From sequence record PQ179042: a stretch of 40,673 nucleotides of DNA; one strand, written 5' to 3'. This stretch comes from Escherichia phage KM02. Shown here piece after piece: positions 1,089 to 39,802 of the stretch; positions within the stretch are counted from its first letter, which is position 1, and each line of letters opens with the position of its first letter. The notes below the pieces were generated by a model. The model worked only from the letters and a program-made list of their open reading frames with translations. It did not search any database and was not told the DNA's origin. Position numbers and translations under genes: made by a program.

Positions 1089-1277
1089 ATGGCAGACCGT
1101 AAGCTGACCAAAGCAGAAGTGATAGCCGAATGTCGTGAAACTTTCCGCGAGTTCCCTGAGACTTTCAGAGGTGACGACATAGCAAAACAGCAGTATTGGA
1201 ATGATTACACAGACAGTCTCTGTAAGTCTGGCATGATTTACAACCACCAGTATAACACCTGGTCAAACCCATTCTAA
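1089..1277 (+). CDS. Hypothetical early protein
   Basis: 62-aa ORF with SD aagga 8 nt upstream inside the repeated leader block. Confidence 0.5.
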   Translation: MADRKLTKAEVIAECRETFREFPETFRGDDIAKQQYWNDYTDSLCKSGMIYNHQYNTWSNPF

Positions 1278-8766: not shown

Positions 8767-9465
8767 ATGGCTAAAGAGCAACTGAAGACTTTCACCACTC
8801 CTGTAGCTGGTATCGTTGAGCCTTACGCATGGCTTAACAAAGCAGACACCAAGTTTAACGAGCGTGGTGAGCATAAGGTTAACCTGACTTTCAGTCTGGA
8901 TGACCCGAAGGTCCGTAAGATGATTGATGTATTACAGAAGATTCACGACGATGCGTATGCGAAAGCACTCGCAGACCACGAGAAGAACCCACCTCAGGTT
9001 CAGCGTGGCAAGAAGCCTATAGAGCCGCGTGAAGGCGACATGCCGTGGATTGCGAATGGTGACGGTACTGTTACCATGAAGTTTAAATGCTTTGCGTCTT
9101 ACCTGAAAGACGGCAAGTCAGAGCCTATCGTATTACGGTTCTACGACACCGATGCTAAACTCATCCGTGACGTCCCGAATATTGGCGCTGGGTCTAAGCT
9201 GAAGGTAAAGTTTAAAGTCCTGCCGTTCAAGTGGAACGCTGCGACTGGTGCAAGCGTTAAGCTCCAGCTTGAGTCCTGCCTTCTGGTAGAACTGAAGGAA
9301 TGGAAAGGTGATGGTACTGGTGGCGATGGTGGTTGGGGTGATGATGAAGACCTCGGTACTGGCTACAAAGCGTCAACAGATGGTGACTTCGGGTCTGATG
9401 ACTTCGGTGACGATGGTTCCGAAGGTGGTGACGACTCCAGCTCTGGTGGCGATTACGATTTTTGA
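8767..9465 (+). CDS. 2.5: Single-stranded DNA-binding protein
   Basis: 232 aa, identical length to T7 gp2.5; acidic C-terminal tail ending DYDF; internal GKKPIEPREGDMPW. Confidence 0.92.
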   Translation: MAKEQLKTFTTPVAGIVEPYAWLNKADTKFNERGEHKVNLTFSLDDPKVRKMIDVLQKIHDDAYAKALADHEKNPPQVQRGKKPIEPREGDMPWIANGDGTVTMKFKCFASYLKDGKSEPIVLRFYDTDAKLIRDVPNIGAGSKLKVKFKVLPFKWNAATGASVKLQLESCLLVELKEWKGDGTGGDGGWGDDEDLGTGYKASTDGDFGSDDFGDDGSEGGDDSSSGGDYDF

Positions 9466-9896
9466 AGAGACTAAACCGTGAGTCACTGCGGAGTAAGATA
9501 CTAGAAAATGTGACCAGAGAGAATTACTGCTGGATTTGGCAGAAGTCTTTCGGGTCACATGGATATGGTAATATAGGGACTGGGGGACAACGAAATGAGA
9601 CAGTACATAGGGTTTCATACGAAGTGTTCAATGGGACCATACCTGAAAAAATGCTGGTATTACATTCGTGTGACAACCGTAAGTGTTGCAACCCTGAGCA
9701 TTTACGGGTCGGAACATACAAGGAGAACCTCACGGATAGAGACACTAGGTCAAAGCGTGTGGTTGTTATGACTATGGATAAGGCTAGGGAGGCGAGAGCC
9801 TCTGGTCTTTCATGTACTGAACTAGCCACCAAATATGGCCTGTCTTATTCCTCAATGTTTAAGCTATTAAGAGGTGAGACATGGCGAGAAGTATGA
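9462..9896 (+). CDS. HNH homing endonuclease with C-terminal helix-turn-helix
   Basis: Motif YGNIGTGG...VHRVSYEVFNGTIPEKMLVLHSCDNRKCCNPEHL; sits between genes 2.5 and 3; TTG start with no clear SD. Confidence 0.75.
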   Translation: MKRLNRESLRSKILENVTRENYCWIWQKSFGSHGYGNIGTGGQRNETVHRVSYEVFNGTIPEKMLVLHSCDNRKCCNPEHLRVGTYKENLTDRDTRSKRVVVMTMDKAREARASGLSCTELATKYGLSYSSMFKLLRGETWREV

Positions 9897-10333
9897 GTAG
9901 AGGACATCAAGTCGGGGCGTATCGCTCTGGACTGGAGGCAAAGAACCAAGAGTGGCTTGAGAAGAATGGCGTAAAAGCTGAATACGAAGCATATAAGATA
10001 GGCTACGTAGTCCCATCTAGCGATCATTTTTACACGCCAGATTTTATCCTTCCTAACGGTATCATCGTGGAGACCAAAGGTATCTTCGAAAGCGATGACC
10101 GTAAGAAGCACCTTTTGGTACGAGAACAGCACCCAGAGTTAGACATCCGGTTCGTGTTCTCAAGTTCACGCTCCAAGTTATACAAAGGGTCTCCGACCAC
10201 GTATGGCGCATGGTGCGAAAAGAACGGCTTTAAGTATGCCGATAAGTTCATCCCGGTTGAGTGGCTGCGAGAGACGACTGTACGTCTGCCCTCAGGTATC
10301 CTCATCCCCAAGAAGAAAGGAGTTAAGTTATGA
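9881..10333 (+). CDS. 3: Endonuclease I (Holliday junction resolvase)
   Basis: 150 aa; YTPDFILPNGIIVETKG...DDRKKHLLVREQHPELDIRFVFSSSRSKLYKGSPTTYG closely matches T7 gp3. Confidence 0.92.
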   Translation: MARSMSRGHQVGAYRSGLEAKNQEWLEKNGVKAEYEAYKIGYVVPSSDHFYTPDFILPNGIIVETKGIFESDDRKKHLLVREQHPELDIRFVFSSSRSKLYKGSPTTYGAWCEKNGFKYADKFIPVEWLRETTVRLPSGILIPKKKGVKL

Positions 10334-18908: not shown

Positions 18909-19149
18909 ATCAATCAGTAAGGCATTCAAGAAAGTGGTGAAAAGTACGCTAGGGACCGTTGGTCTTGGCTCTGATGACGCACCTAAGGTTGTTGAGGCTC
19001 AGACCCCAGCAGCACCAGTGGAAGTACCGAACGACCAAGTTGAAGATGTGGATACCGAAGCGACTGCATCTGACGAGAAGAAAGTGAAGAGTTCAGGTAA
19101 GCGTAGCCTTCAGGTCTCTCGTACCTCTGGTGGCGGTATTTCTATATGA
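18901..19149 (+). CDS. 7.3: gp7.3-like virion/tail protein
   Basis: MGK...KK N-terminus and C-terminal SGKRSLQVSRTSGGGISI match T7 gp7.3 (KKSLSVARSSGGGINI); GTG start. Confidence 0.7.
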   Translation: MGKSISKAFKKVVKSTLGTVGLGSDDAPKVVEAQTPAAPVEVPNDQVEDVDTEATASDEKKVKSSGKRSLQVSRTSGGGISI

Positions 19150-19538
19150 CACCATGTCATGAATGGGGTGGATACTGCACCAAGGATGGCTACGGTGAAA
19201 CTAGGGTAGATGGGCGCAAGGTTCGCGTTCATCGCCTAGAGTGGACGAAACACTACGGACCTATTCCGCATGACAAAGTGGTTCGCCACAAGTGTGACAA
19301 CCCTAAGTGTTTTAATATTGAACACCTAGAGTTAGGAACAACACAGGATAACACGGCTGACAGAGTGTCTCGTGGTCGAAGCGCCAAAGGAGAGGATAAC
19401 GGTAACGCCGTCCTCACTATTGATATTGTTAATGAGGTTCGCGAAAGTAGCATGTCTCAGCGCAAAATAGCGAAGACCTATGGAGTGTCACAGTCTACCG
19501 TATCTAAAATCAAACGCAATGTAACGTGGAGGTCATAA
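19146..19538 (+). CDS. HNH homing endonuclease with C-terminal helix-turn-helix (T7 gene 7.7 position)
   Basis: KDGYGETRVDGRKVRVHRLEW...GPIPHDKVVRHKCDNPKCFNIEHL plus HTH IAKTYGVSQSTVSKIKR; 130 aa. Confidence 0.8.
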   Translation: MTPCHEWGGYCTKDGYGETRVDGRKVRVHRLEWTKHYGPIPHDKVVRHKCDNPKCFNIEHLELGTTQDNTADRVSRGRSAKGEDNGNAVLTIDIVNEVRESSMSQRKIAKTYGVSQSTVSKIKRNVTWRS

Positions 19539-23390: not shown

Positions 23391-23393
23391 TTG

Positions 23394-23434
23394 AAACCCC
23401 TTGGGTGCCTTCGGGTGCCTGAGGGGTTTTTTTG
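23394..23434 (+). terminator. Tphi-like terminator for phage RNAP
   Basis: About 16-bp stem with a ttcg tetraloop (23410-23413) followed by T7; resembles T7 Tphi. Confidence 0.75.
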
Positions 23435-23550: not shown

Positions 23551-24117
23551 ATGGCTCAATACATTCCACTGAATGCTAACGATGACTTAGACGCTATCAA
23601 CGATATGTTAGCTGCTATCGGTGAACCATCAGTCCTACAGCTTGACGAAGGTAACGCTGACGTCTCGAATGCTCAACGTATATTACATCGTGTCAATCGT
23701 CAGGTCCAAGCTAAAGGATGGAACTTTAACATTAATGAAGCTGCTATCCTGACACCTGATGTCCAAGACAACAGGATTCGATTCTTGCCGTCATACCTTC
23801 GTGTAATGACTGCCGGTGCCACCAGCTACTACAGCAACATGGGTGGATACCTGTACGACCTGTCCACTCAGTCAACCACTTTCACCGACCCTATAACGGT
23901 AGAGCTTGTTGAGATGAAACCGTTCTCTGAGATGCCTGTGGTATTCAGGGATTACATCGTTACCAAGGCCAGCCGTGAGTTCAACGCTAAGTTCTTCGGT
24001 AGCCCAGAGTCTGAACTGTACCTTCGTGAGCAGGAAGCAGAACTCTATCAGCAGGTCATGGAATACGAGATGGACACTGGTCGCTACAACATGATGTCAG
24101 ACATCGGGAGGGACTAA
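23551..24117 (+). CDS. 11: Tail tubular protein A
   Basis: DAINDMLAAIGEP, GWNFNI, MEYEMDTGRYNM match T7 gp11; ATG 23551 with SD aggaggga preferred over the track start 23521. Confidence 0.9.
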   Translation: MAQYIPLNANDDLDAINDMLAAIGEPSVLQLDEGNADVSNAQRILHRVNRQVQAKGWNFNINEAAILTPDVQDNRIRFLPSYLRVMTAGATSYYSNMGGYLYDLSTQSTTFTDPITVELVEMKPFSEMPVVFRDYIVTKASREFNAKFFGSPESELYLREQEAELYQQVMEYEMDTGRYNMMSDIGRD

Positions 24118-24344
24118 TGGCTAGTCACAACCTGAAGATTCACCGCCAACACTTTGGTCCGGTACAACTAGGTCTAAAGACAGCAGAGCTGAGACTTAAC
24201 GACCGTGACTTTAAGGTTGGCGACTGGCTTATCCTGAATGAGTGGAACAACGGGTATACTGGACAACAGGTAGCACGTAAGGTTGTCCACATTGCTGACG
24301 TTGGGGACATCGCTGAAGGATACGTCCTAATGAGTATGATTTAA
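24117..24344 (+). CDS. Small DUF3850/ASCH-like (PUA-fold) protein
   Basis: HNLKIHRQHFGPVQLGLKTAELRLNDRDFKVGDWLILNEW..GYTG fits the recalled DUF3850/ASCH pattern; SD gggaggga; no counterpart between T7 genes 11 and 12. Confidence 0.5.
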   Translation: MASHNLKIHRQHFGPVQLGLKTAELRLNDRDFKVGDWLILNEWNNGYTGQQVARKVVHIADVGDIAEGYVLMSMI

Positions 24345-24355
24345 GTGGAGGTGAT

Positions 24356-24796
24356 ATGATACACGACAAGTGCGGTCTGGAGTTTAGGGAGGGAGCAAAA
24401 GGCTCATGCTTGAACTGTAGACGTATAGCCAAGCTGGTAAAGAAAGGACTATCAGTGGAGGAAGCTAGATTAGTTGAGCCGAGAGGAAAGAAGGTCATTA
24501 AAGATAAAGACTGGAAGAAGAACAGTCAGCTTAAATATCTTTATGGCATCAACCTAGAGAGGTTTAATAAAATGCGAAAGGAGGCAAACTATCAGTGCCA
24601 AATCTGTGGGTGTCATGAGAGCGAGAGTACAGGAGGGACATTATGTGTTGACCACAACCACGAAACTGGTGAGGTTAGAGGTCTTCTCTGTAGGCACTGC
24701 AATAAGTCTCTAGGAGGTTTCAAGGACTCCCGTGAGATTCTACTAAACGCTGCTAAGTATCTGGAGGACACATGCCGCTTATCACACAAAGCATAA
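24356..24796 (+). CDS. Endonuclease VII-like nuclease
   Basis: CQICGCHES...CVDHNHETGEVRGLLCRHCNKSLG matches the T4 endonuclease VII family core; SD ggaggtga. Confidence 0.75.
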   Translation: MIHDKCGLEFREGAKGSCLNCRRIAKLVKKGLSVEEARLVEPRGKKVIKDKDWKKNSQLKYLYGINLERFNKMRKEANYQCQICGCHESESTGGTLCVDHNHETGEVRGLLCRHCNKSLGGFKDSREILLNAAKYLEDTCRLSHKA

Positions 24797-27129
24797 AAAA
24801 TCTTAAAGGTGGCATTAGCCAGCAGCCTGATATACTGAGGTTCTCGGACCAAGGCGAGAAACAGGTAAACTGCTGGTCATCAGAGAGTGATGGCCTACAG
24901 AAGCGTCCACCTACAGTATTCAAGCGACGTCTTAACATCGACGTTGGGAGCAACCCTAAGTTCCACCTGATTAACCGTGATGAGCAGGAGCAGTATTACA
25001 TCGTGTTCAACGGGTCCAACATTCAGGTAGTCGACTTGAGCGGTAATCAATACTCAGTTTCAGGTGCGGTAGACTACGTTAAGTCGTCCAACCCGCGAGA
25101 TAACATCCGTGTCGTTACAGTTGCAGACTATACGTTCATCGTGAACCGTAAGGTTGTCGTTAACGGTGGAAGCGAGAAGTCACACTCTGGTTATAATCGT
25201 AAAGCTCGTGCTTTAATTAACCTGCGTGGTGGACAGTATGGTCGCACCCTTAAGGTAGGAATCAACGGAGGCGTTAAGGTTTCGCATAAGCTGCCAGCAG
25301 GTAATGATGCCGAGAATGACCCACCTAAGGTGGATGCTCAGGCCATCGGTGCAGCTCTGAGAGACCTTCTTGTTGCTGCTTACCCTACCTTCACGTTCGA
25401 CCTTGGGTCTGGCTTCCTGTTAATCACTGCCCCTTCAGGGACTGACATTAACTCAGTGGAGACGGAGGATGGCTACGCTAACCAGCTAATCAGCCCAGTC
25501 CTAGACACGGTGCAAACAATCTCTAAGTTGCCTCTTGCGGCTCCAAATGGGTACATCATTAAGATTCAAGGTGAGACCAACAGTAGCGCCGATGAATATT
25601 ACGTGATGTATGACTCCAATACTAAGACGTGGAAGGAGACAGTAGAGCCGGGAGTTGTCACTGGGTTCGATAACACCACAATGCCACATGCTCTGGTGAG
25701 ACAATCTGACGGCTCCTTTGAGTTTAAGACTCTGGACTGGTCTAAGCGGGGTGCTGGCAATGATGACACAAACCCTATGCCTAGCTTCGTGGATGCTACG
25801 ATTAACGATGTGTTCTTCTACAGGAACAGGCTAGGGTTCTTGTCCGGAGAGAACGTAATCATGAGCCGTTCAGCCAGCTACTTTGCGTTCTTCCCTAAGA
25901 GTGTGGCGACATTGAGTGATGATGATCCTATTGACGTAGCTGTAAGTCACCCTAGAATCTCAATACTTAAGTATGCCGTTCCGTTTAGCGAGCAGCTACT
26001 ACTTTGGTCAGATGAGGTGCAGTTCGTGATGACAAGCTCAGGGGTCCTTACCTCGAAGTCTATCCAGCTTGATGTGGGCTCAGAGTTTGCCTTAGGTGAT
26101 AACGCCAGACCGTTCGCTGTAGGACGCTCAGTCTTCTTCTCAGCGCCTCGTGGGTCATTCACCAGTATTAAGCGATACTTCGCTGTAGCAGATGTGTCTG
26201 ACGTGAAGGATGCCGATGATACCACTAGTCACGTACTGTCCTATATCCCTAACGGGGTGTTTGACATTCAAGGTACAGGGACTGAGAACTACATCTGCGT
26301 CAACTCTACAGGTGCATACAACCGAATCTACATCTACAAGTTCTTGTTTAAGGACGGCGTACAACTTCAAGCCTCTTGGTCGCACTGGGAGTTTCCTAAA
26401 GCTGATAAGATTCTGGCGTCTGCGTCGATTGGCTCTACCATGTTCATTGTTCGTCAGCACCAAGGGGGTGTGGACATTGAGCACCTTAAGTTCATCAAGG
26501 AGGCAACCGACTTTCCATTAGAGCCGTATAGACTCCACGTTGACTCCAAGGTGTCTATGGTAATACCAAATGGCTCATACAACGCTGACACCTATAAGAC
26601 TACGGTTGACATTGGTGCTGCTTATGGGGGCAACGCTCCGTCTCCCGGTCGGTACTATCTGATTGACAGTCAGGGTGCCTATGTGGACCTTGGTGAACTT
26701 ACCGACATCTCTACTGTGATTACCCTCAACGGCGATTGGTCGGGACGTACAGTGTTCATCGGACGGTCTTATCTGATGTCCTACAAGTTCTCACGGTTCC
26801 TGATTAAGATTGAAGACGATAGTGGCACTCAGTCTGAAGACACTGGTCGTCTACAGCTTCGTCGGGCTTGGGTCAACTACAAGGACACTGGCGCTCTGAG
26901 ACTCATTGTCAGAAACGGTGAGCGGGAGTTCGTGAATACCTTCAACGGGTACACCCTTGGTCAGCAAACCATCGGTACTACAAACATTGGTGACGGGCAG
27001 TATCGATTCGCTATGAATGGTAACGCATTAACCACGAGTCTAACCTTAGAGTCCGACTATCCTACCCCAGTGTCCATCGTTGGGTGTGGCTGGGAGGCAT
27101 CATACGCTAAGAAAGCTCGTTCAGTCTAA
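24772..27129 (+). CDS. 12: Tail tubular protein B
   Basis: SQSIKNLKGGISQQPDILR, LQKRPP, HLINRDE, VTVADYTFIVNR, RAWVNY, GCGWE match T7 gp12. Confidence 0.95.
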   Translation: MPLITQSIKNLKGGISQQPDILRFSDQGEKQVNCWSSESDGLQKRPPTVFKRRLNIDVGSNPKFHLINRDEQEQYYIVFNGSNIQVVDLSGNQYSVSGAVDYVKSSNPRDNIRVVTVADYTFIVNRKVVVNGGSEKSHSGYNRKARALINLRGGQYGRTLKVGINGGVKVSHKLPAGNDAENDPPKVDAQAIGAALRDLLVAAYPTFTFDLGSGFLLITAPSGTDINSVETEDGYANQLISPVLDTVQTISKLPLAAPNGYIIKIQGETNSSADEYYVMYDSNTKTWKETVEPGVVTGFDNTTMPHALVRQSDGSFEFKTLDWSKRGAGNDDTNPMPSFVDATINDVFFYRNRLGFLSGENVIMSRSASYFAFFPKSVATLSDDDPIDVAVSHPRISILKYAVPFSEQLLLWSDEVQFVMTSSGVLTSKSIQLDVGSEFALGDNARPFAVGRSVFFSAPRGSFTSIKRYFAVADVSDVKDADDTTSHVLSYIPNGVFDIQGTGTENYICVNSTGAYNRIYIYKFLFKDGVQLQASWSHWEFPKADKILASASIGSTMFIVRQHQGGVDIEHLKFIKEATDFPLEPYRLHVDSKVSMVIPNGSYNADTYKTTVDIGAAYGGNAPSPGRYYLIDSQGAYVDLGELTDISTVITLNGDWSGRTVFIGRSYLMSYKFSRFLIKIEDDSGTQSEDTGRLQLRRAWVNYKDTGALRLIVRNGEREFVNTFNGYTLGQQTIGTTNIGDGQYRFAMNGNALTTSLTLESDYPTPVSIVGCGWEASYAKKARSV

Positions 27130-27136
27130 CTTATTG

Positions 27137-27186
27137 AAGGGCCTATAGATTTACCTTAACTATCACTATAGGGACTATAGGCCCTT
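27137..27186 (+). repeat. Perfect 12-bp inverted repeat (aagggcctatag / ctataggccctt) bracketing the phi13 promoter
   Basis: Arms at 27137-27148 and 27175-27186 with a 26-nt spacer that contains the promoter core. Confidence 0.7.
27154..27176 (+). promoter_or_regulatory. Phage-RNAP promoter (phi13 analogue)
   Basis: cttaactatcactataggga at 27155-27174. Confidence 0.7.
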
Positions 27187-27205
27187 AAGGTTATAAGGAG
27201 ACTTT

Positions 27206-27667
27206 ATGTATATTCGCAAGGCTACAGATGTAGACGTTTGGTACGCTGCTGCACAACTTACAGATGACGACTTAGAGGAGTGTAAAGCCAACTATGGGAC
27301 CATTGAAGGTCTCACTGAAAGGTTACAAGCACACCTAACGTCTTCATCTGTGGTTTTGACTAACGCTCTTGGGGAGATATATGCCTATGGGGGCAACCAA
27401 GGTGACAACGTTTGGTTCCTGACTACCAGAATGACCGAGCGTCTCCAGCCTAAAGGTAAGCGAGAGTTCCGTGAGAGAATCATGGAGTATCGTGACAAGA
27501 TGCTGGAGGACTATCCGGTACTATGGAACTACGTCTGGGAAGGCAATACGTCTCACATCAGGTTTCTCAAGTCAATAGGCGCTAAGTTCCACGACGATAA
27601 GTGGACCAGAAGTCCAGTGACTGGAGAAGTATTTATTCTATTCACAATCACTAAGGAGGACACGTGA
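27206..27667 (+). CDS. 13: Internal virion protein gp13-like (by position)
   Basis: 153-aa ORF with SD aaggag between genes 12 and 14. Confidence 0.65.
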   Translation: MYIRKATDVDVWYAAAQLTDDDLEECKANYGTIEGLTERLQAHLTSSSVVLTNALGEIYAYGGNQGDNVWFLTTRMTERLQPKGKREFRERIMEYRDKMLEDYPVLWNYVWEGNTSHIRFLKSIGAKFHDDKWTRSPVTGEVFILFTITKEDT

Positions 27668-27846
27668 CTAAGGTCTGTACCGTCTGTAAAATTGAAAAGC
27701 CACTAGAAGCGTTCTCCCCACGGAAAGACTCTAAGTGTGGTGTACGCGCTGCCTGTAAGCTGACCAGTAGAAACTACCACTCTACATGCGAAGATTTCTA
27801 TGGTAAGGCTGCTGAGTATCTGGCTACAAGCCGGAAGGGGGATTAG
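27664..27846 (+). CDS. Small CxxC zinc-ribbon protein
   Basis: MTKVCTVCKIEKPLEAFSPRKDSKCGVRAACK resembles zinc-ribbon N-terminal modules of phage homing endonucleases; 60 aa. Confidence 0.4.
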   Translation: MTKVCTVCKIEKPLEAFSPRKDSKCGVRAACKLTSRNYHSTCEDFYGKAAEYLATSRKGD

Positions 27847-37562: not shown

Positions 37563-38000
37563 ATGCTCAAACTTTTACGACAGGCCGTCCCTTGGCTGGT
37601 GGCAGGACTCCTGTTCTGTTCAGGCTACTGGGTGGCAGACAATAAGTGGGAGGCGAAAGTAAACGATGAGTACATCACGAAACTTGAGGCACGAGAAAAT
37701 CAACGGGCTGCTGTCCAAGGTGAAATCGACAAAGTGTCAAAAGACTGGCAAGACAAGATGTCCGCGCTGGAAGGCTCTACTGATAGGATTATTGCTGACC
37801 TTAACCACGATAACAAGCGGCTGCGCGTCCGAGTCAACACCTCAGGTCTCACCGAGTCAGATGTCAGTCGATGCTTCCCTAATGGTAGAGTCGAACTACA
37901 CCCAGAAACTTCTAAAAGTCTTATCCGAATAACTCAGGAGGCGGACCTTAAGGAGAAGGCGCTTCAGGACACAATAAGGAGGCTCCAAGGTGTTAAGTGA
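37563..38000 (+). CDS. 18.5: Rz-like i-spanin
   Basis: N-terminal TM segment; ALEGSTDRIIADLNHDNKRLRVRV matches T7 gp18.5. Confidence 0.88.
   Translation: MLKLLRQAVPWLVAGLLFCSGYWVADNKWEAKVNDEYITKLEARENQRAAVQGEIDKVSKDWQDKMSALEGSTDRIIADLNHDNKRLRVRVNTSGLTESDVSRCFPNGRVELHPETSKSLIRITQEADLKEKALQDTIRRLQGVK
37666..37932 (+). CDS. 18.7: Rz1-like o-spanin lipoprotein, embedded in the +1 frame of gene 18.5
   Basis: PRWKALLIGLLLTLTTITSGCASES (lipobox) and SVDASLMVESN match T7 gp18.7. Confidence 0.82.
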   Translation: MSTSRNLRHEKINGLLSKVKSTKCQKTGKTRCPRWKALLIGLLLTLTTITSGCASESTPQVSPSQMSVDASLMVESNYTQKLLKVLSE

Positions 38001-38035
38001 TTACTACAAAGTGGACCTAATGCTGGAGGGACTCT

Positions 38036-39802
38036 ATGTCTAAGAAAACACCTGTTGAAAGACAGGAAGAAATGACCAAAAGGATGAGGGACGACTTCGT
38101 GTTCTTCATCTTCGTTCTCTGGAAAGCTCTTAGCCTTCCGGTTCCAACCCGCTGCCAGATAGATATGTGTAAGAAGCTGGCTGCTGGGGATAATCGCCGC
38201 TTCATCCTTCAGGCGTTCCGTGGTATTGGCAAGTCGTTTCTGACCTGTGGTTTCGTGGTCTGGAAACTATGGAACAACCCAGACTTGAAGTTCATGATTG
38301 TGTCTGCCTCAAAGGAACGAGCCGATGCGAACTCCATCTTCATCAAGCGAATCATCGACCTCATGCCTCAGCTTCAGGAACTCAAACCTAAGCAGGGACA
38401 GCGAGATGCGGTTATCAGCTTTGACGTTGGGCCAGCCAAGCCAGATCACTCACCTTCGGTTAAGTCCGTTGGTATCACTGGTCAGTTGACTGGTAGTCGT
38501 GCTGACATCCTGATTGCCGATGACGTGGAGGTTCCTAACAACTCAGCGACTCAGGCTGCACGAGACCGTCTGTCAGAGCTTGTGAAAGAGTTCGACGCTA
38601 TCCTGAAGCCGGGAGGTACAATCATCTATCTGGGTACTCCTCAGAACGAGATGACCTTGTATCGTGAGCTGGAAGGCCGTGGGTACACCACTACTATCTG
38701 GCCCGCTCGTTATCCACGAGACCGGAAGGACTGGCAGTCTTACGGCGACCGTCTGGCTCCTATGCTTCAGGCAGAGCTTGAAGAGGACCCTGAGTCATTC
38801 TACTGGCGTCCGACTGATGAAGTACGCTTCGATGATACGGACCTTAAGGAACGTGAGCTGTCATATGGTAAGGCTGGCTTCGCTCTACAGTTCATGCTTA
38901 ACCCGAACCTGAGTGATGCCGAGAAGTACCCACTGAAGCTCCGTGACCTTATCGTAGCGGATTTGGACCCAGCGTCCAGCCCAATGGTCTACCAATGGTT
39001 ACCGAACCCTCAGAACAAGCGTGAGGACGTTCCTAACGTTGGACTCATGGGTGACTCATACCACACGTATCAGACTGTAGGTTCTGCCTTCAGTTCGTAC
39101 ACCCAGAAGATTCTGGTCATTGACCCTAGTGGTCGTGGTAAGGATGAAACTGGCTATGCGGTACTGTATCAGCTCAACGGCTACATCTTCGCTATGGAAG
39201 TTGGTGGTATGCGTGGTGGTTATGAAGACTCTACGCTGGAAGCCTTAGCTAAGATTGGTCGTAAGTGGAAGGTCAACGAATACGTCATTGAGGGTAACTT
39301 CGGTGATGGTATGTACCTTGAGCTATTCAAGCCTGTAGCGGCCCGTATCCATCCTGCTGCTGTAACTGAAGTGAAGAGTAAGGGTCAGAAAGAACTCCGC
39401 ATCTGTGACGTTCTGGAGCCTATCATGGGGTCTCACCGGCTTATCGTTAATGCTGCTGCTATCGTCCAAGACTACCAGTCAGCCTCCGATAAGGATGGTG
39501 TGCGTAACCCTATCTACTCCCTCTTCTACCAGATGACCCGTATCTCCCGTGAACGTGGAGCCTTGGCACACGATGACAGACTTGATGCGCTGGCTATCGG
39601 TGTACAGTTCTTCGTTGAGTCTATGGCGAAGGATGCCAACAAAGGCGAACGTGAAGTCACTGAGGAGTGGCTGGAAGAACAGATGGAGAACCCACGGAAA
39701 GGCTTCGAGTCCATCCACACTGAGTTCTGGGACAATGGGGTCCGGGTAACTCACGATACGGACGACGAGCTTGGACTAGGGTCCTACGTTACGTTCCACT
39801 AG
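38036..39802 (+). CDS. 19: Terminase large subunit
   Basis: 588 aa; [25 protein letters not shown] and the nuclease-domain region match T7 gp19. Confidence 0.97.

Follow-up and report, generated by a model that had tools for sequence, protein, structure and literature searches.

The genome of Escherichia phage KM02 (sequence record PQ179042) carries two small genes between tail genes 11 and 12, raising the question of whether they travel as one mobile two-gene cassette or arrived at this junction separately. The window analysed here is the whole stretch of 40,673 nt; the phage is T7-like and belongs to Kayfunavirus.

Two optional genes at the gene 11–gene 12 junction

A sequence-only reading had placed two open reading frames between the tail genes, each with a strong Shine–Dalgarno sequence (SD). 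Both are there, preceded by GGGAGG and GGAGGT, respectively, and flanked by conserved neighbours (Table 1). The overlapping starts and stops also described in that reading hold at the outer edges of the pair: the ATG of the first gene and the gp11 stop codon overlap by a single base (TAATG), and the last 25 nt of the second gene overlap gene 12, with its stop codon 25 nt inside. They do not hold between the two genes, where the nuclease frame starts 11 nt past the DUF3850 stop. The SD of gene 12 itself falls within the conserved Y-L-E codons at the C terminus of the nuclease (TATCTGGAGG), an arrangement shared by the window, L083 and Klebsiella phage KP32 isolate 195. An Rfam search for RNA elements gave only a sub-threshold match, at the terminator upstream of gene 11.

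Table 1. Features of the junction, in positions of the window
Feature	Position	Strand	Basis
Gene 11 (tail tubular protein A)	23551–24117	+	Pfam Tube 7.9e-46, phrog_446; left conserved neighbour
DUF3850/ASCH (PUA-like) gene, 75 aa	24117–24344	+	Pfam DUF3850 4e-19, ASCH 1.2e-5; PDB 3IUW 8e-11
Insertion, 418 bp, relative to nuclease-less relatives	24346–24763		Alignments, junction reads; boundary ±1 nt
Nuclease gene, 146 aa, DHHRN (Endo VII-motif) type	24356–24796	+	Pfam Endonuclease_7 2.2e-20
N-terminal module, codons 1–36 (H3, C6, C18, C21)	24356–24463	+	Homologues have CxxC...CxxC at the same position
Endonuclease_7 catalytic domain, aa 58–137	24527–24766	+	Alignment to T4 Endo VII and Hpy99I
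D99-H100-N101-H102 codons	24650–24661	+	
Gene 12 SD, TGGAGG	24762–24767	+	Within nuclease Y-L-E codons
Gene 12 (nozzle / tail tubular protein B)	24772–27129	+	Pfam Phage_nozzle E=0; right conserved neighbour

The family calls of the sequence-only reading, DUF3850/ASCH and Endonuclease VII, are borne out by Pfam E-values far beyond chance (Table 1), and PHROGs agrees with both. The 75-aa frame scores 69 bits against DUF3850 (PF12961; cutoff 22.9) and passes the gathering threshold of ASCH (PF04266) with 26.4 bits against 21.2; in PHROGs it falls into an ‘RNA-binding protein’ family (1.5e-34). Its residues 19–26, GLKTAELR, fit GxKxxExR through G19, K21, E24 and R26, which we take to be the N-terminal motif of ASCH/DUF3850 proteins. 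Residues 3–73 are covered by PDB 3IUW, a structural-genomics entry named ‘activating signal cointegrator’, in which a DUF3850/ASCH barrel of 83 aa stands alone. EcoDS1 has the same gene, there unnamed, in the same place between genes 11 and 12 (YP_002003774). The label ‘RNA-binding protein’ is a transferred annotation, and in the literature DUF3850 appears simply as a PUA-like domain without an assigned role. We read the product as a PUA-like accessory protein that is expressed late and probably binds RNA or nucleosides.

The two genes differ sharply in distribution. The DUF3850 protein occurs beside gene 11 at 80% amino acid identity or more in 154 phage records, and the DUF3850 DNA part of the interval finds matches in 165; the nuclease DNA part matches only Hafnia phage yong1 (full length, 97.4%) and LI10P1 (a truncated copy). 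The 75-aa gene is a dispensable accessory gene resident in most members of Kayfunavirus, and LI10P1 shows that a phage can do without it. The sequence-only reading had taken universal, syntenic presence of the cassette in relatives as a point against it, and this is what we find for the DUF3850 half, which is near-universal and syntenic, and not for the nuclease half, which is sporadic.

Alignment to nuclease-less relatives resolves the nuclease gene as a precise 418-bp presence/absence polymorphism located in the 9-nt spacer that separates the DUF3850 gene from gene 12. In Salmonella phage ST29 the empty site reads TTTAAG/GAGGACACATG (slash, junction), identical to the window flanks, and the empty site was found in ST31, SD6, EcoDS1 and vB_EcoP_F as well as in nine IMG/VR contigs. 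The insertion is lower in G+C (44.5%) than the window as a whole (49.7%). Around the insert there are no transposon-like ends: inverted repeats at the termini are absent, as are direct repeats of any significance, and the sole repeat is the SD-like TGGAGG present at both ends.

These observations bear on whether the DUF3850 gene and the nuclease gene form a single mobile module, for example one whose PUA-like protein acts as a reader and directs the nuclease. The pair lies side by side in the same orientation in the window, yong1, L085, L086 and the divergent L083, and both are absent from T7 and K1F, as one module would have it. Such a module is nevertheless highly unlikely: about 150 GenBank Kayfunavirus records have the DUF3850 gene at the 11/12 junction without the nuclease, KP32 isolate 195 has a nuclease there without DUF3850, the empty site lies after the DUF3850 gene and not before it, and the synonymous divergence (dS) from yong1 is 0.18 for DUF3850, as high as in the flanks, versus 0.074 for the nuclease. 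The proposed two-gene cassette therefore dissolves into separate optional genes, ordinary for Kayfunavirus-type phages; of the mobile module that had been suggested, mobility fits the nuclease. We consider it likely that the junction records two nested, independent insertions, a DUF3850/ASCH gene and then a homing endonuclease.

An Endonuclease VII-motif nuclease

Residues 58–137 of the nuclease align with positions 3–81 of the 82 in the Endonuclease_7 model (PF02945) at 72.8 bits (cutoff 23.6), and PHROGs places the protein in ‘endonuclease VII’ families (5e-31). Endonuclease_7 is its only Pfam match at E≤0.1, with none to classical HNH models (HNH or HNH_3); NCBIfam returned no match, and PADLOC only an Hpy99I-like REase_II model. 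The AlphaFold model (pLDDT 89.5) has Hpy99I and T4 Endo VII as its best PDB folds. A tblastn search of the window with the nuclease detected no paralogues. Elsewhere in the window, the frames at 9462–9896 and 19146–19538 match HNH_3, and a decayed gp13.5-type copy is present.

Alignment to T4 Endo VII and Hpy99I identifies C81, C84, C112 and C115 as zinc ligands and D99, H100, H102, R108 and N116 as active-site residues. Across 55 homologues, conservation is at least 90% for C84 and complete for all the others. They complete the pattern of the DHHRN homing endonuclease family defined by Fang et al. 2018 (PMC6083498), CX2-4C...D-H-x-H...R...CX2C-N, which corresponds to C23/C26, D40, H41, H43, R54, C58/C61 and N62 of the T4 enzyme; every family-defining residue is present in the window nuclease. 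Members of the endonuclease clade have the Endo VII motif at the C terminus and, in podoviruses, accompany a T7 endonuclease I encoded by the same genome (PMC6083498). Here the motif occupies residues 58–137 of 146, and the window encodes a T7-type endonuclease I at 9881–10333 (Phage_endo_I, 2.4e-76). The N-terminal 36-residue module, with its histidine and cysteines, is presumed to bind zinc and DNA. The gene is thus best read as encoding a free-standing homing endonuclease of the DHHRN (Endo VII-motif, beta-beta-alpha-Me) family, its activity being a prediction.

The Pfam family name would suggest instead a structure-specific resolvase like T4 endonuclease VII, acting on Holliday junctions or other branched DNA in packaging or recombination, and the core does superimpose on T4 Endo VII with an rmsd of 2.8–3.3 Å over 90 columns. 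We regard this role as extremely unlikely. The T4 enzyme resembles the nuclease only weakly in sequence, and only in the core (E=0.05 over 53 residues, 72–124), so the full-length alignment typical of a T4 Endo VII-type resolvase is missing and the remainder of T4 Endo VII goes unmatched; the nuclease gene is also optional. Cleavage of branched or modified DNA, as the sequence-only reading had proposed, is unlikely because the phage has its own resolvase in endonuclease I and because the motif sits towards the C terminus, where the endonuclease clade, unlike the resolvase clade, has it (PMC6083498).

Spread, decay and proposed homing of the nuclease gene

Several comparisons point to horizontal movement of the predicted homing endonuclease gene. 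First, the insert is 97.8–98.3% identical to its counterparts in yong1 and ERZ11473979, versus 90–95% for flanking gp10, gp11 and gp12, and the LI10P1 remnant is 100% identical next to a gp11 of 91%. Second, the window and yong1 differ at a dS of 0.074 in the nuclease and of 0.18–0.29 in the flanks (Fisher P=0.002), with DUF3850 as diverged as the flanks. Because the nuclease dS lies below that of the flanks and the LI10P1 remnant is so much closer than its gp11, these divergences indicate that the gene spreads horizontally and is younger than its surroundings. Third, related nucleases sit directly upstream of gene 12 in L083 and KP32 isolate 195, marking this as a recurrent site. Vertical retention with frequent loss over a long time could account for part of the distribution.

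A large protein collection contains 30 variants at 90% identity or more, so the nuclease is not very rare in the wild; the 15 of these that are listed are all 146 aa long, most on contigs of about 40 kb. Close copies come only from this collection, and in IMG/VR no relative exceeds 58% identity. A dN/dS of 0.13–0.25, together with pN 0.16 and pS 0.75 against the 75%-identical L083 copy, indicates purifying selection.

That selection also bears on whether the window copy is a dead remnant without cutting activity. Decayed copies do occupy the same slot in other genomes, variant P0071 carries H100R, and the decayed gp13.5-type copy shows that decay has occurred elsewhere in this window. For the window gene, however, such a fate is very unlikely: its catalytic and zinc residues are all intact, dN/dS is well under 1, and the protein is full length with a confident model.

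The nuclease gene looks like one that spreads by intron-less homing, which the sequence-only reading had raised; its mobility is indicated by the sporadic presence, the 418-bp polymorphism, the low divergence relative to the flanks and the decayed copies. A mixed infection would bring nuclease-carrying and nuclease-less genomes together. The enzyme, combining a small N-terminal zinc/DNA-binding module with a C-terminal Mg2+/Zn2+ His-Me nuclease domain, would cleave alleles that lack the gene, in or close to the stretch where the DUF3850 stop meets the gene 12 start, the 5′ region of gene 12 being the likely target, and recombinational repair off the nuclease-carrying genome would then install the gene there. 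Carriers themselves would most probably escape cutting, their site being interrupted by the insert. The phage is not harmed by the insertion, which comes with an SD of its own and restores that of gene 12 through the conserved YLE codons at the nuclease C terminus.

The cleavage activity, the target site and the immunity mechanism in this scheme are what we infer, and the flanks offer little to refine them. In sliding-window comparisons with yong1, LI10P1, SD6 and ST31, identity is raised only in the insert and about 70 nt downstream, leaving no clear co-conversion tract; similarity in the upstream DUF3850 gene is no higher among carriers than among non-carriers. For codons 2–10 of gene 12 there are two haplotypes, which encode the same residues but differ at 10 of 27 nt; haplotype A is the one in every carrier, and EcoDS1 is of the haplotype B type. 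We considered this haplotype as a nuclease-derived or immunity allele and rejected the idea because it also occurs in nuclease-less ST29 (100% over 77 nt) and in K1F, which has neither gene. No flank difference fixed between carriers and non-carriers was found, and the target and immunity mechanism given above are therefore guesses.

The slot also preserves products of decay. In LI10P1 the nuclease survives as a deletion fusion in the same slot, with its breakpoint at a CACAACC repeat found in the nuclease (24653–24659) and in DUF3850 (24126–24132). In L080–L082 the slot holds chimeras of the nuclease with a siphovirus gene. Several genomes keep the ends of the endonuclease gene, namely its first 36 codons with the SD and its last 14–35 nt with the gene 12 SD, around an interior swapped in frame for part of an unrelated siphovirus gene; codons 1–36 are retained in the chimeric derivatives P0014 and P0045. 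We also considered the opposite direction, in which the nuclease invaded a phiTE_015-like gene. This idea was dropped because the siphovirus homologues have a different N terminus, with similarity only from the VEE junction on, and because the 36-residue nuclease N terminus is kept in the 75%-identical nuclease P0002. It is conceivable, although we think it improbable, that the slot before gene 12 is a gene-capture site and not merely a parking place for a selfish nuclease. If so, decaying homing endonuclease genes would supply T7-like phages with ready-made signals for expression and with arms of homology, by which new small genes could be gained and traded.

A different reason for keeping the nuclease would be benefit to the phage, through cutting competing phages (exclusion), host DNA or defence elements. 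Many variants keep the frame intact under purifying selection, the catalytic domain resembles that of the sequence-specific restriction enzyme Hpy99I, and the authors describing Hafnia phage Ca speculate that extra nucleases attack the host (PMC8861465). Most close relatives on the same kinds of hosts do without the gene, however, and it decays readily; its slot between conserved genes and its horizontal spread form the classic signature of a selfish element, and exclusion of competitors would be a by-product of homing anyway. Retention for such a benefit is accordingly an unlikely alternative to homing.

The main value of the locus is a correction of annotation: the labels ‘endonuclease’ and ‘endonuclease VII’ in Kayfunavirus genomes hide a homing endonuclease of the DHHRN family, and what looked like a two-gene cassette is in fact two unrelated accessory genes. 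At a single site one can follow the life cycle of one homing element, from empty slot through intact gene to deletion fusion and foreign in-frame replacement, while the insertion keeps an essential downstream tail gene translated by re-creating its ribosome-binding site. This natural series of slot states and the preserved translation of the tail gene make the locus a convenient test system for Endo VII-motif intron-less homing in an easily crossed T7-like phage. The general understanding of T7-like and Kayfunavirus phages is not altered; the nuclease family was already known, and an orthologue had been deposited as ORF37 of yong1/Ca.

Relation to known nucleases

The best solved relative is the type II enzyme Hpy99I (PDB 3FC3), at 2e-9 in sequence (residues 77–137) and E=9e-4 in Foldseek, and both proteins have the core DHNHxTG...R...CxxCN...LGxFKD...YL. 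Unlike the window nuclease, Hpy99I is a dimeric restriction enzyme of 190–200 aa with a methylase and its own N-terminal domain, and is neither phage-borne nor mobile in that sense. T4 endonuclease VII (gp49; PDB 1EN7) shares the beta-beta-alpha-Me catalytic core, with zinc ligands C23, C26, C58 and C61 and active-site residues D40, H41, H43 and N62 as equivalents; its E65 is replaced by L119 in the window nuclease, a replacement also seen in Hpy99I. The T4 enzyme, which has a C-terminal dimerisation domain, differs in belonging to the resolvase clade, in its N-terminal motif and in being essential for T4 packaging.

Closer in setting is the ‘homing endonuclease’ AWN07166.1 of KP32 isolate 195 (Przondovirus), a protein of 152 aa (Endonuclease_7, 8e-23) encoded between genes 11 and 12 and 43% identical to the window nuclease over 108 aa. 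Its 3′ end likewise overlaps gene 12, with YLE codons serving as the gene 12 SD; it differs in lying in another genus without DUF3850, in overlapping gene 11 at its 5′ end and in having an unrelated N-terminal part. The orthologue is the ‘endonuclease’ ORF37 of Hafnia phage vB_HpaA_yong1/Ca (QBQ73019.1; PMC8861465), identical at 97.9% of amino acids and 97.4% of nucleotides on a genome background only about 93% identical, and likewise placed between DUF3850 and gene 12 with the same overlap. In the description of phage Ca, ORF37 figures simply as an addition to the ST31 gene set, not as a homing element, and its best match is a Vibrio phage ICP2 protein at 59% (PMC8861465).

The family’s founding member, F-CphI (ORF177) of cyanophage S-PM2 (PMC6083498), is 49% identical to the window nuclease over the 82-aa catalytic domain (E=7e-22). 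Both are free-standing genes adjoining a conserved gene, of similar length (142 and 146 aa), and both proteins combine a cysteine-rich N terminus with a C-terminal Endo VII motif, CxxC...DHxH...R...CxxCN, although the N-terminal domains do not align confidently. The phages differ, S-PM2 being a T4-like cyanomyovirus in which the neighbour is psbA, and the window coming from a T7-like podovirus in which the neighbour is tail gene 12. Cleavage by F-CphI was shown experimentally, whereas the window nuclease is known from its sequence and a model. For immunity, F-CphI depends on a group I intron that the phage itself carries (‘collaborative homing’); the window has no such intron.

Layout of the interval and structure of the insertion

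The window is the genome of a T7-like podovirus in the K1F-like genus Kayfunavirus (Studiervirinae); its top whole-genome matches are about 93% identical, no identical record was found in the phage collection, and a 40.5-kb contig from run SRR33209174 encodes an identical nuclease in the same context. The two ORFs that a sequence-only reading had placed between genes 11 and 12 are present exactly there, and its family calls, DUF3850/ASCH and Endonuclease VII-like, agree with both Pfam (see the table of features) and PHROGs. The gene 11 stop overlaps the start of the DUF3850 gene (TAATG), and an 11-nt spacer separates this gene from the nuclease gene, which is preceded by a GGAGGT Shine–Dalgarno sequence and stops 25 nt within gene 12. 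Upstream of gene 11, a strong intrinsic terminator hairpin lies where the EcoDS1 record annotates a terminator (‘phiTE’). This hairpin gave the sole Rfam match of the 11–12 region, to NsiR1 and below threshold (23.6 bits versus 39), which we take to be a chance match; no additional terminator-like site was found inside the 11–12 interval.

The nuclease gene arrived as a 418-bp insertion in the 9 nt that separate the DUF3850 stop from the gene 12 ATG. In Salmonella phage ST29, the empty site (the junction without the nuclease insert) reads ATGATTTAAG up to the insertion point and GAGGACACATGCCGCTT after it, the same as the flanks in the window, and further empty sites occur in ST31, SD6, EcoDS1, vB_EcoP_F and nine IMG/VR contigs. 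The insertion supplies its own Shine–Dalgarno sequence and start (TGGAGGTGATATG) and has no stop of its own, the frame continuing through native sequence to a TAA. The GGAGG serving gene 12 is rebuilt by the conserved C-terminal Y-L-E codons of the nuclease (TAT CTG GAG G), an arrangement also found in contig L083, which has a 75%-identical copy, and in Klebsiella phage KP32 isolate 195. Transposon-like repeats are absent from both sides of the insert, whose G+C content is 44.5%, versus 49.7% for the window.

Coordinates of features in the window and in compared sequences
Feature	Sequence	Position	Strand	Details
Nuclease gene, free-standing His-Me	Window	9462-9896	+	HNH_3 1e-13; TTG start; between gp2.5 and endonuclease I
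Nuclease gene, free-standing His-Me	Window	19146-19538	+	HNH_3 3e-17; C-terminal helix-turn-helix; just before portal gene
Terminator hairpin, then T-run	Window	23393-23430	+	Between genes 10 and 11
Gene 11	Window	ends 24117		Pfam Tube 8e-46
DUF3850 gene, 75 aa	Window	24117-24344		Pfam DUF3850 4e-19, ASCH 1e-5
CACAACC repeats	Window	24126-24132, 24653-24659		Ends of LI10P1 deletion
Insertion	Window	24346-24763		Boundary ± 1 nt
Nuclease gene, 146 aa	Window	24356-24796		Pfam Endonuclease_7 2e-20, residues 58-137
Nuclease TAA	Window	24794-24796
Gene 12	Window	24772-27129		Pfam Phage_nozzle E-value 0
Gene 12 codons 2-10	Window	24775-24801		Two haplotypes
gp13 region	Window	27100-27700		Mosaic
60-aa ORF	Window	27664-27846	+	Between gp13 and gp14
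Rz-like/large terminase gap	Window	38000-38036		35-nt gap only
Gene 11/gene 12 junction	L089 (K1F)	1195-1215		TAATG
Deletion fusion	L067 (LI10P1, OZ035801)	26912-27064
Deletion fusion	L005	1504-1656
In-frame chimera	L080	3001-3345
In-frame chimera	L081	3001-3345
In-frame chimera	L082	3001-3408

Distribution, mobility and decay of the two genes

The two genes do not behave as the paired cassette that had been proposed. Searched as DNA, the 680-nt interval matches 165 phage records, with full cover only in Hafnia phage vB_HpaA_yong1 (yong1; 97.4%); in the remaining records the match is confined to the DUF3850 part and the beginning of gene 12. DUF3850 adjoins gene 11 at a protein identity of at least 80% in 154 records, most of them without the nuclease, of which close copies occur only in yong1 (full length) and Kayfunavirus LI10P1 (C-terminal third). 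Conversely, KP32 isolate 195, from another genus and without DUF3850, encodes a 152-aa Endonuclease_7 protein between genes 11 and 12 that overlaps gene 12 and is 43% identical to the nuclease in the window. DUF3850 is itself an optional insertion within Kayfunavirus, because the type phage K1F has neither gene and joins gene 11 directly to gene 12. The separate distributions therefore form a nested series: 11–12, 11–DUF3850–12 and 11–DUF3850–nuclease–12.

By contrast, the proposed mobility of the nuclease is borne out. Between the window and yong1, synonymous divergence is lower for the nuclease (0.074) than for gene 11 (0.29), gene 12 (0.23) or DUF3850 (0.18) (Fisher P=0.002). The nuclease is therefore younger than the genes around it, a sign of horizontal transfer.

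Nucleotide identity to the window
Region	yong1	ERZ11473979	LI10P1
Nuclease insert	97.8%	98.3%	100% (111-nt remnant)
gp10A 3′ part	94.6%	93.0%	89.7%
gp11	94.3%	93.8%	91.3%
gp12 first 300 nt	94.7%	92.5% (133 nt)	94.0%
gp12 next 600 nt	92.3%	not covered	94.3%

The dN/dS of the nuclease is 0.13–0.25 and, against the L083 copy, pN is 0.16 with pS saturated at 0.75, so the protein has long been under purifying selection. Thirty sequences make up its 90%-identity cluster; all 15 of those listed have 146 aa, mostly on contigs of about 40 kb, and single variants carry H100R and C6R.

Two kinds of decay product occupy the same slot. LI10P1 has lost 527 bp between two CACAACC repeats, so that codon 5 of DUF3850 is joined to codon 101 of the nuclease in a 50-aa ORF (MASHNHETGEV...), and both genes are thus dispensable. 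Three metagenomic Kayfunavirus contigs (L080, L081 and L082) retain the left junction, the first 36 nuclease codons and the last 14–35 nt of the insert, with the interior swapped in frame for phiTE_015-like sequence (chimeric proteins P0014, 114 aa, and P0045, 135 aa). Homologues of this interior, 66–87% identical, occur in unrelated phages of about 46 kb (gmqsjt-1, Bas78, DS8 and C1), which we take to be siphoviruses; they have another N-terminus, and the shared sequence starts only at the VEE junction, where the microhomology AGTGGAGGA joins nuclease codons 1–36 to the phiTE_015-like part. Because these homologues share sequence only from that junction onward, the nuclease came first and was overwritten later.

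The DUF3850 protein matches a stand-alone 83-aa structure (3IUW, 8e-11) and carries GLKTAELR, which we take to fit the GxKxxExR motif of ASCH domains. Its conservation within the genus is high (dN 0.006 versus dS 0.16–0.18), and homologues are dispersed over many unrelated phages. In the literature, DUF3850 figures only as a PUA-like domain with no assigned role; our tentative best guess is a late-expressed, non-essential accessory protein that might bind RNA or nucleosides. No functional tie to the nuclease was found.

Nuclease family and a homing model

Alignment to T4 endonuclease VII and Hpy99I equates the zinc ligands C23, C26, C58 and C61 of the T4 enzyme with C81, C84, C112 and C115 of the nuclease, its active-site residues D40, H41, H43 and N62 with D99, H100, H102 and N116, and the conserved arginine R54 with R108. 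These columns are invariant among 55 homologues, except that C84 is conserved in at least 90%. The AlphaFold model (pLDDT 89.5) has good PDB matches only to Hpy99I and T4 endonuclease VII. The first 36 or so residues (H3, C6, C18 and C21) correspond to the N-terminal CxxC...CxxC module of homologues and may bind DNA. The same residue signature defined the DHHRN homing endonuclease family (Fang et al., PMC6083498), and mutagenesis found it essential in F-CphI of cyanophage S-PM2 (PMC6083498), which is 49% identical to the nuclease across 82 residues (E=7e-22). A role on branched or modified DNA, also suggested by the sequence-only reading, is disfavoured: the Endo VII motif of the nuclease lies in its C-terminal half and the phage encodes its own T7 endonuclease I (2.4e-76), the two criteria separating the ‘endonuclease clade’ from the resolvase clade (PMC6083498).

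Intron-less homing is the best-supported reading. During co-infection, the nuclease would cleave an allele without the insert, at the DUF3850/gene 12 junction or close to it, and repair of the break would then copy the nuclease gene into that allele. Three observations suggest this target position. Related nucleases recur directly before gene 12 in three lineages; the empty site and the window’s own flanks have the same sequence; and no fixed flank difference separates carriers from non-carriers, so that splitting of the site by the insertion itself would be the simplest form of immunity. No co-conversion tract is visible around the insert. Codons 2–10 of gene 12 occur in the genus as two synonymous haplotypes, with 10 differences in 27 nt affecting 8 codons and no amino acid; haplotype A is found in all nuclease carriers and also in K1F and many non-carriers, and vB_EcoP_F returns to near identity directly after these codons.

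Other nuclease genes and known systems

Two further, free-standing His-Me nuclease genes lie elsewhere in the window, and ST31 also has an HNH gene at the site before the portal gene. The ends of the 60-aa ORF between gp13 and gp14 (MTKVCTVCKIEKPLEAF at the N-terminus, AAEYLATSR at the C-terminus) match those of the gp13.5-type Endo VII nuclease, of which yong1 and EcoDS1 have intact, 133-aa versions; because the catalytic middle is missing, this ORF is a second homing endonuclease gene from the same family, now decayed. The directly adjoining gp13 region is a mosaic replacement, about 69% identical to yong1, LI10P1, SD6 and ST31 with both sides above 90%. Between the Rz-like and large terminase genes, the window has the empty allele of a site at which yong1/Ca has an optional 397-bp HNH homing endonuclease gene linked to plaque size (PMC8861465).

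Neither the natural series of states at the 11–12 slot nor the rebuilt gene 12 Shine–Dalgarno sequence is surprising; both are neat details. The yong1 orthologue of the nuclease is already in GenBank as an ‘endonuclease’ (QBQ73019.1), and the paper on Hafnia phage Ca names it ORF37 and counts it as an extra gene relative to ST31, with no homing-element analysis (PMC8861465). The enzyme family and its occurrence in T7-like podoviruses were described in 2018 (PMC6083498).
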